From IMG/VR virus record IMGVR_UViG_2778261537_000006: a DNA stretch of 31,980 bases, one strand, 5' to 3'. The DNA is from a virus. Its lineage: Duplodnaviria; Heunggongvirae; Uroviricota; Caudoviricetes. The notes beneath the pieces were generated by a model. That model saw only the letters and a program-made list of their open reading frames with translations. It ran no database searches and had not been told where the DNA came from. This document shows, piece by piece, positions 20,920 through 21,567 of the stretch (its first letter is position 1; each line of letters opens with the position of its first letter). The position numbers and the translations under genes were made by a program.

Positions 20920-21567
20920 ATGAGAAAACTATTACTACCGTTATTATTTATGGCTGGGACTGTTAATGCAGCATCAAGCGTAAAGGAGATTTGTACCGAT
21001 TATACGAAATACCTTGGGCACGTTTACGGCTTTGCTGTCAGTCAAGACGAATCCATGCGCAAGAAGTTACTGTCAGATATGAAACGCCTTAAACTTTCTG
21101 AAGCGATGGTGCAGCAAGAACTGTATAAAGTCGCAACCAACGAAAATGCTAAATATCAATATTCTCGCCTGTTAAATCCCGACGCAAACGAGATCAATCG
21201 AAGCACTTTCGATTATATGGTAAAGGCATGCGAAACCGCTCCTGATTTTGCTATCCCTAGCTGGGGTGTGCTGGTGGCGAGCAATGCCGTTAATAAAGAA
21301 GATGTTGGAAGAAATGGCATTGACTCAATAAGAAATGCCCCAGGAATGCGCCATCAAAACGTACAGGGTACGCTTGAAGAACGAGCCAGGGGGCCGGGTA
21401 CAAACTCCCCAATGGGAAACCTCTCCCCGGAGGAATTGCAAGAGTATAACCAACGGATGGAGCAGTATGAGAAAGCTGCACGCGAAAAAATGGAACAACA
21501 AAAAAACGGATCTCTTAATACTTTCCAGCAAGGTTTAAAAGCGCTTAATTTACCCTATGAATGGTGA
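20920..21567 (+). CDS. Secreted/periplasmic protein, candidate superinfection-exclusion (Sim-like) protein
   Basis: ATG at 20920 with GGTGAGG ribosome-binding site. Cleavable-type signal peptide (MRKLLLPLLFMAGTVNAAS). Carries a motif also found in Sit. Confidence 0.55.
   Translation: MRKLLLPLLFMAGTVNAASSVKEICTDYTKYLGHVYGFAVSQDESMRKKLLSDMKRLKLSEAMVQQELYKVATNENAKYQYSRLLNPDANEINRSTFDYMVKACETAPDFAIPSWGVLVASNAVNKEDVGRNGIDSIRNAPGMRHQNVQGTLEERARGPGTNSPMGNLSPEELQEYNQRMEQYEKAAREKMEQQKNGSLNTFQQGLKALNLPYEW

Follow-up and report, generated by a model that had tools for sequence, protein, structure and literature searches.

We analyzed a viral DNA window of 31,980 nucleotides (the whole stretch under study) which, by gene order and DNA matches, is a P1-like phage-plasmid. 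The genes around the sim region follow the order of P1, with ant/icd on the minus strand, the C4 RNA, two plus-strand ORFs, and then pmgC, tub, pmgB, sit, pmgA and bplA (Table 1). The first of the two ORFs falls exactly where P1 has its superimmunity locus, sim, with the C4/icd/ant immunity region on one side and pmgC-tub-pmgB-sit on the other. A first-pass annotation had described it as a secreted protein adjoining the immunity region and sharing a motif with Sit; the adjacency holds, with the C4 RNA, icd and ant as neighbors of the ORF, and both the ORF and its motif were found at the coordinates given there. The location, between ImmI (c4/icd/ant) and pmgC in a P1-like genome, is that of a SimA-domain gene.

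Table 1. Features of the sim locus and of sit in the window
Feature	Position	Strand	Basis
C4 antisense RNA, ImmI	20541..20626	-	Rfam RF01695 70.8 bits, RF03163 56.2 bits
a1/b1 target element of C4 RNA	20694-20746		Rfam
C1 operator Oc4 equivalent	20807..20823	-	carried over from P1 annotation via gapless alignment
SimA-family secreted protein, 215 aa	20920..21567	+	ORF and sequence; phrog_3933
Sec-type signal peptide MRKLLLPLLFMAGTVNA, predicted cleavage VNA/A, then ASS, no lipobox	20920..20970	+	read from sequence
Family-specific helical N-domain, residues about 18-128, invariant Cys25 and Cys104	20971..21303	+	
Sit-like linear motif GIDSIRNAPGMRHQNVQGTLEERARGPGT	21316..21402	+	BLASTP, hhalign, PHROG profile, shuffles
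Variable C-terminal tail, helical, ends LPYEW	21403..21564	+	family alignment, allele survey, AF2
Second secreted protein, 158 aa, YfjT-like	21619..22095	+	ORF, signal-like N-terminus, phrog_3429
Variable sim-locus cassette relative to P1	21036..22100	.	DNA alignments, megablast coverage
Sit, 1130-aa tail tape-measure protein	24320..27712	+	synteny, identity to P1 sit
SLT lytic transglycosylase domain of Sit, residues 748-857	26561-26890	+	Pfam SLT E 8.9e-27
Sit motif copy 1 NGRGMRREVVQGTLEERARGKGTATAAGN	27137..27223	+	BLASTP; Sit conservation profile
Sit motif copy 2, core only GIDGLFDKLRNSPGMRKN	27311..27364	+	weak on its own, E 0.15

Positions 20700-22200 share 98.7% identity with the P1-like Punavirus Escherichia phage vB_EcoM-Ro157c2YLVW, and P1 itself matches the first 360 bases only, with 95% DNA identity across 20700-21059 by megablast. 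Window and P1 are near-identical across the c4 promoter/operator region and on into the ORF, for its first ~140 nt. The identity ends at ~21036-21060, at a AATCCATGCG microhomology, and picks up again near 22101, where the late promoter LPsit precedes pmgC; the breakpoint microhomology overlaps the start of simB in P1 (window 20893-21059 against 7194-7352 of L001). Among P1-like phage-plasmids, the sim region is recognized as hypervariable (PMC9603915), and such a hotspot fits the expectation for genes engaged in inter-phage conflict.

Upstream of the ORF, the Oc4 equivalent sits between the divergent c4 promoters and a predicted PsimA (about 20829-20855). PsimA is a prediction only, in the P1 record as well, and a promoter scan found no strong plus-strand promoter upstream of the ORF. 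The gene is presumably expressed from the prophage. Two repeat structures were observed elsewhere in the window. At 6061-6137, 3.7 copies of a 21-bp repeat (TTGACTATACGCGATTTATTG) lie directly upstream of ORF 6205-7125, as well as upstream of ORFs of 398 and 333 aa, the sizes of ParA and ParB, and look like plasmid replication iterons. At 31480-31746, a 132-nt unit is duplicated in tandem (2.0 copies, 87% match) inside the presumed gene S for the tail fibre, which lies downstream of R (30413-30847), and the unit translates into a tail-fibre-repeat-like peptide.

The ATG at 20920 follows a Shine-Dalgarno sequence, GGTGAGG, by 6 nt and is the same as the RefSeq start in phage Ro157c2YLVW; an in-frame ATG at 20893, the annotated simA start of P1, gives a 224-aa form. 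The N-terminus reads as a signal peptide, as had been proposed, with MRKLLLPLLFMAGTVNA followed by ASS at the predicted cleavage site, and the pattern of a K/R-rich n-region, a hydrophobic core and ANA/A(S) is kept in 15 of 15 family members. The domain behind it is confidently helical in the AlphaFold2 (AF2) model, and its two invariant cysteines are probably disulfide-bonded. A Sec-type signal peptide and two invariant cysteines are consistent with a periplasmic location, where the product would be expected to reside. The Sit-like motif has its core, NAPGMRHQ, at 21334-21357, with the likeness to Sit reaching about 21423, and falls in a low-confidence linker of the AF2 model (pLDDT about 48-55); N139, G142, M143, R144 and Q146 are invariant or nearly so in the family alignment. 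The tail contains a modelled helix at residues 170-196 (pLDDT about 72-77).

Database searches outside the family gave little. The PTP-like phytase profile (PF14566) matches residues 24-109 at 27.3 bits against a cut-off of 27, covering positions 46-132 of its 158 only; there is no C-x5-R around either cysteine and the match is missing in divergent members, and we treated it as spurious. The same match is precomputed for many database members and spans the helical part of the profile only. A sequence search of the PDB returned GhpA and the Staphylococcus aureus monofunctional glycosyltransferase at E 0.02-0.09, chance-level matches dismissed on inspection of the alignments. The PADLOC and NCBIfam searches produced no match to the ORF protein, and fold comparison of the N-domain gave no functional clue. 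The +1 frame over about 21265-21538 is open for ~90 codons (listed as an ORF at 21335-21538). Database variants of 205 aa (P0002, P0004, P0007, P0008 and P0017) are frameshifts into that frame at different positions; most are single Logan assemblies and may be sequencing errors.

By its sequence, the ORF encodes a full-length member of an uncharacterised SimA-domain family: the phrog_3933 profile matches the protein over its full length (E 3.4e-137). The family is small. It comprises 28 homologous clusters in a set of 5.8 billion proteins, several of them named 'simA domain protein', and an exhaustive HMM search of 1.84 billion proteins returned 11 representatives, all of the SimA family; scans of genomes and metagenomes added no further SimA-family lineages. 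All members with recovered genomic context lie in P1-like elements, and in PLSDB, 267 plasmids carry a match, 84 of them with a near full-length gene. Two short contigs with this Escherichia coli P1-like gene (L079 and L080) come from metagenome-assembled genomes labelled Paenibacillus and Bacillota, most likely through binning contamination.

The relation to P1 simA becomes clear from the longer form of the protein. The first 45 residues of the 224-aa form, signal peptide included, are identical to P1 SimA (52 aa), which shares the locus and the upstream region and, unlike the window protein, has no N-domain body, Sit-like motif or tail. In P1, simB and simC stand in place of the gene body and the downstream partner, where the cassette of the window holds a SimA-family and a YfjT-like gene. 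The identity over 45 residues marks P1 simA as a 5' stump; judged from these alignments, the annotated P1 SimA is the 5' remnant of a ~215-aa gene that is intact in the window and in many phage-plasmids.

The alignment of the family resolves four parts, namely the Sec-type signal peptide, a conserved domain of ~110 residues with Cys25 and Cys104, a near-invariant N-x-(P/R)-G-M-R-x-Q core and a variable C-terminus. The C-terminus takes one of three forms: a V-(Q/E)-G-(T/S)-L-x-E-R-A-x-G-x-G extension followed by a helical tail, as in the window; the Sit-like extension followed by a Cys-Cys module; or a Cys-Cys module straight after the core. The tails of other alleles consist of one or two Cys-Cys modules or stop at GPGVAP, and several lineages have the NxPGMRxQ core only, without the VQGTL-ERARG half. 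The most divergent member, P0030, retains the complete motif (NAPGMRHQAVKGSMAERARGDGT). An allele of 163 aa stops at GPGVAP right after the motif and is common (153 member sequences, 13 IMG/VR loci), which points to the N-domain and motif as the retained unit. Its GPGV ending resembles a Sit variant, ...AYGPGVPAP, of the Salmonella lineage L006.

Downstream of the ORF lies a second gene for a secreted protein, whose product ends DGCLKRAK and is 64% identical (E 2e-75) to the corresponding neighbour in L004, which carries PF27224 YfjT. Full-length SimA-family genes are almost always accompanied by such a gene, and the pairing was found in L003-L006, L044, L050 and L029. In Salmonella and Klebsiella, it occurs in the most divergent P1/D6-like elements, and the pair is therefore probably ancestral. 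In L029 (7974-10147), the 163-aa allele is followed by a different YfjT-like gene (168 aa) and then by a 357-aa ORF that has no PADLOC match, an arrangement also seen in L030-L041; in L045, a full-length gene is followed by a SimC-like gene. The YfjT-like protein shows no similarity to the structural proteins of the window, and neither the C-terminal Cys modules nor P1 SimB and SimC match structural proteins.

The other protein with the motif, Sit, carries an SLT lytic transglycosylase domain and is assigned as the tape-measure protein in a study of the P1 virion (PMC9024508). It is essential for P1, and simA, simB and simC are not (PMC10695390). The first of the two Sit blocks named in the first-pass annotation, NGRGMRREVVQGTLEERARGKGT, starts at 27137 as described, and the second, given one base off, lies at about 27311-27364. 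Motif copy 1 falls within Sit residues 905-964 (window 27032-27211), a conserved island that follows the SLT domain. A conservation profile of eight Sit lineages shows this island and the extreme C-terminus to be conserved and residues 965-1040 to be variable, and the positions MR..VVQGTL.ERA.G.G do not vary in the C-terminal alignment, not even in Sit proteins with an exchanged SLT module. Copy 2 is present only in Sit of the E. coli P1 type, inside the variable stretch 965-1040; its alleles read NSPGMRKN or NARGMRSN and belong to an insertion missing from Salmonella and Klebsiella Sit. Two Sit fragments from E. coli and Salmonella (P0039 and P0042) have very different SLT types before the same motif block, which suggests that the muralytic module is exchanged by recombination. 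The AF2 model of the Sit C-terminus is confident for the SLT domain only; with a pLDDT below 50, the motif region is modelled too poorly to judge whether the Sit motif docks on the SLT domain in cis.

The similarity between the two proteins is far beyond chance in pairwise and profile alignments alike. BLASTP aligns residues 122-168 of the ORF protein to Sit 927-969 with 23 of 47 identities (E 6e-9), and among six-frame ORFs of at least 80 aa in the window, Sit is the sole match (E 8.8e-8). Profile-profile comparison by hhalign of 15 family members and 10 Sit C-termini gave a probability of 97.2% and E 2.9e-11 over 35 columns, and the PHROG profile of Sit, phrog_2533, matches residues 128-171 (E 6.9e-8). 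Compositional chance, which would have undone the earlier claim, fails as an explanation: the two proteins show 17/23 ungapped identities, whereas 30 shuffles averaged 8.2 and never exceeded 10. Each of the divergent lineages examined, from Salmonella, Klebsiella and elsewhere in E. coli, gave the relationship independently, with E values against Sit of 3.6e-9 for L003, 7.7e-8 for L004, 1e-6 for L006, 8e-7 for L029 and 7e-5 for L045.

At the DNA level, 55 of 87 nt (63%) are identical between the ORF and the Sit copy. The partial DNA conservation that had been noted is thus real, but it is no more than the amino-acid identity implies: identical residues use the same codon in only 7 of 19 cases. 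Synonymous differences (pS 0.69) far exceed nonsynonymous ones (pN 0.17) in the comparison of the ORF with Sit, and within and between the two families, pS is 0.5-1.0 and pN 0.1-0.27. With synonymous sites saturated and amino acids kept, the motif is ancient and held by selection at the protein level rather than by recent exchange, and recent gene conversion between sit and the ORF is ruled out by the same saturation. The motif is also exclusive to these two contexts. A degenerate DNA pattern searched against 2.9 million IMG/VR viral contigs gave 117 matches, all in Sit or SimA-like proteins, and a motif profile run against 5.8 billion proteins retrieved simA fragments only; the motif was not found outside Sit and SimA-like proteins in either search.

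We looked for cognate-specific coevolution of the motif copies and found no diagonal excess in the matrix of identities, which comprises only about 8 independent lineages. The motif of the window ORF is nearer to Sit of the Salmonella/Klebsiella type (22/30) than to its own Sit (19/30).

A protein that is secreted, encoded at the superimmunity locus and equipped with a motif otherwise private to the essential Sit is most economically explained by interference with Sit-dependent entry. The reading that we favor, tentatively and without rating it as probable, is that the ORF product is a periplasmic mimic of the Sit linear motif that hinders the tape-measure-mediated DNA entry of superinfecting P1-like phages. 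The private helical N-domain would present a copy of the motif, F-x-N-x-P/R-G-M-R-x-Q-x-V-Q/E-G-T/S-L-x-E-R-A-x-G-x-G-T, on a flexible linker in the periplasm. When the tail of another P1-like phage contracts, the C-terminal part of its Sit would be released into the periplasm and would use the motif to engage a partner, opening the DNA route; candidates for such a partner are a component of the host envelope, a different phage protein that is also ejected, or a further copy of Sit. The resident secreted protein would occupy this partner or coassemble with the incoming Sit, and as a competitive or dominant-negative mimic, it would cause superinfection exclusion at the step of DNA entry. The model itself requires a binding partner shared by Sit and the ORF product, and we infer that such a partner exists. 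Models of both proteins leave the motif disordered or at low confidence, which is the behavior expected of a peptide folding upon partner binding.

The first-pass annotation had read the protein as an exclusion decoy, and the evidence is divided. The locus, the Sec signal, the two cysteines and the private, selected motif agree with the proposal. Against it, the P1 record assigns superimmunity to SimC and only putative accessory functions to SimA and SimB, and SimC, which shares the locus, a signal-like N-terminus and dispensability for plaque formation, has no homolog among the window ORFs and contains no Sit-like segment. P1 Sim is described as a periplasmic protein that undergoes processing and stops entry once the phage has adsorbed. 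The mimic reading is further weakened by P1 and many relatives having kept only 45 residues of the gene, apparently unharmed; by the motif failing to covary with the cognate Sit and being reduced to its core in some lineages; by the promoter being only predicted and the N-domain fold being uninformative on function; and by the scarce target that a stoichiometric decoy would need.

Exclusion directed at the tape measure has parallels in other phages. The tape-measure protein is the point of action of the exclusion proteins HK97 gp15 and TP-J34 Ltp. In T4, the tape-measure protein is bound by Imm (bioRxiv 10.64898/2026.03.06.709160), a precedent for tape-measure proteins as targets of exclusion. 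All three are phage-encoded envelope proteins that stop genome translocation by targeting the channel formation mediated by the tape measure, as the ORF product is proposed to do. They bind the tape-measure protein and are either membrane proteins or lipoproteins, whereas the window protein is a signal-peptide protein with a Sit motif, and its apparent link to the tape-measure protein is only that shared motif. No sequence or fold similarity of the ORF protein to T4 Imm, HK97 gp15 or Ltp was found, and a literature search located no report of an exclusion protein carrying a tape-measure segment. The proposed mechanism would be a novel variant within tape-measure-directed superinfection exclusion. 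A broader form of the claim, held more cautiously, is that intact simA represents a new mechanistic type, a 'self-mimic' that would jam the DNA entry of all P1-like phages, with the motif marking the site on Sit, and by way of it the partner, through which P1 would get across the periplasm and the inner membrane.

Among the alternatives, the first-pass annotation had already named a shared module for binding the host envelope, which we regard as unlikely. Here the motif would bind a host component such as peptidoglycan, a chaperone or an inner-membrane protein without any exclusion, and the secreted protein, attached through the same anchor, would serve lysogenic conversion or fitness, its variable C-terminal modules acting as the effector. 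Such a role would suit the modular build, in which exchangeable C-terminal tails follow a constant N-domain and core motif, the steady pairing with a YfjT-like secreted protein, and the lack of cognate-specific covariation with Sit. It does not account for a location at the superimmunity locus adjoining the immunity region or for the confinement of the family to P1-like elements, and the common 163-aa allele is without any C-terminal effector part.

A further possibility, improbable in our judgment, is that the protein binds and inhibits Sit directly. The N-domain would bind the incoming Sit, for example at the SLT domain or at the Sit motif, and its own motif would serve as a tethering, oligomerizing or pseudo-ligand element; exclusion would then come from inhibition and not from competition. 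The model for such action is T4 Spackle (Sp), a small secreted helical inhibitor in the periplasm that targets the gp5 tail lysozyme and thereby acts on the muralytic component of the injection apparatus. The ORF product resembles Spackle in being a small, secreted, helical protein of a resident phage, and no structural similarity between the two was found.

We give little credence to the motif being a common processing site, at which a protease would recognize or cleave both proteins, freeing the C-terminal portion of Sit along with the variable tail of the ORF product. Each protein does have the motif in a disordered and exposed stretch, flanked by a folded domain on one side and a variable region on the other, and the tails beyond it are exchangeable, with one allele ending exactly there. 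Thirty conserved residues, however, far exceed the needs of a cleavage site, and Sit matures in the cytoplasm while the other protein is exported, which makes a single protease unlikely unless cleavage follows ejection; evidence for processing of Sit was likewise not found in the accessible part of the P1 virion study (PMC9024508). Least credible is an evolutionary relic, a piece of sit captured by a neighboring gene and now functionless there: the genes share a strand within a recombination hotspot, at a distance of 5.6 kb, and P1 tolerates the loss of the gene, but the saturated synonymous sites with retained amino acids, the motif kept in the most divergent member and the core residues invariant across 15 members make this reading unlikely.

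How the DNA of P1-type myophages passes the periplasm and the inner membrane, and how the sim locus interferes, is still poorly understood. If the mimic reading is true, the 30-residue motif would be a specific, mutable functional site on Sit, and an exported peptide or the natural 163-aa allele would be a simple handle for finding the partner of Sit. If the protein causes no exclusion, the motif still marks a conserved interaction common to two envelope-directed phage proteins. The textbook simA of P1 is recast here as what is left of a larger gene, found intact in many clinical phage-plasmids of E. coli, Salmonella and Klebsiella, and this matters for the question of which P1-like elements can live together or pass on resistance genes through infection.
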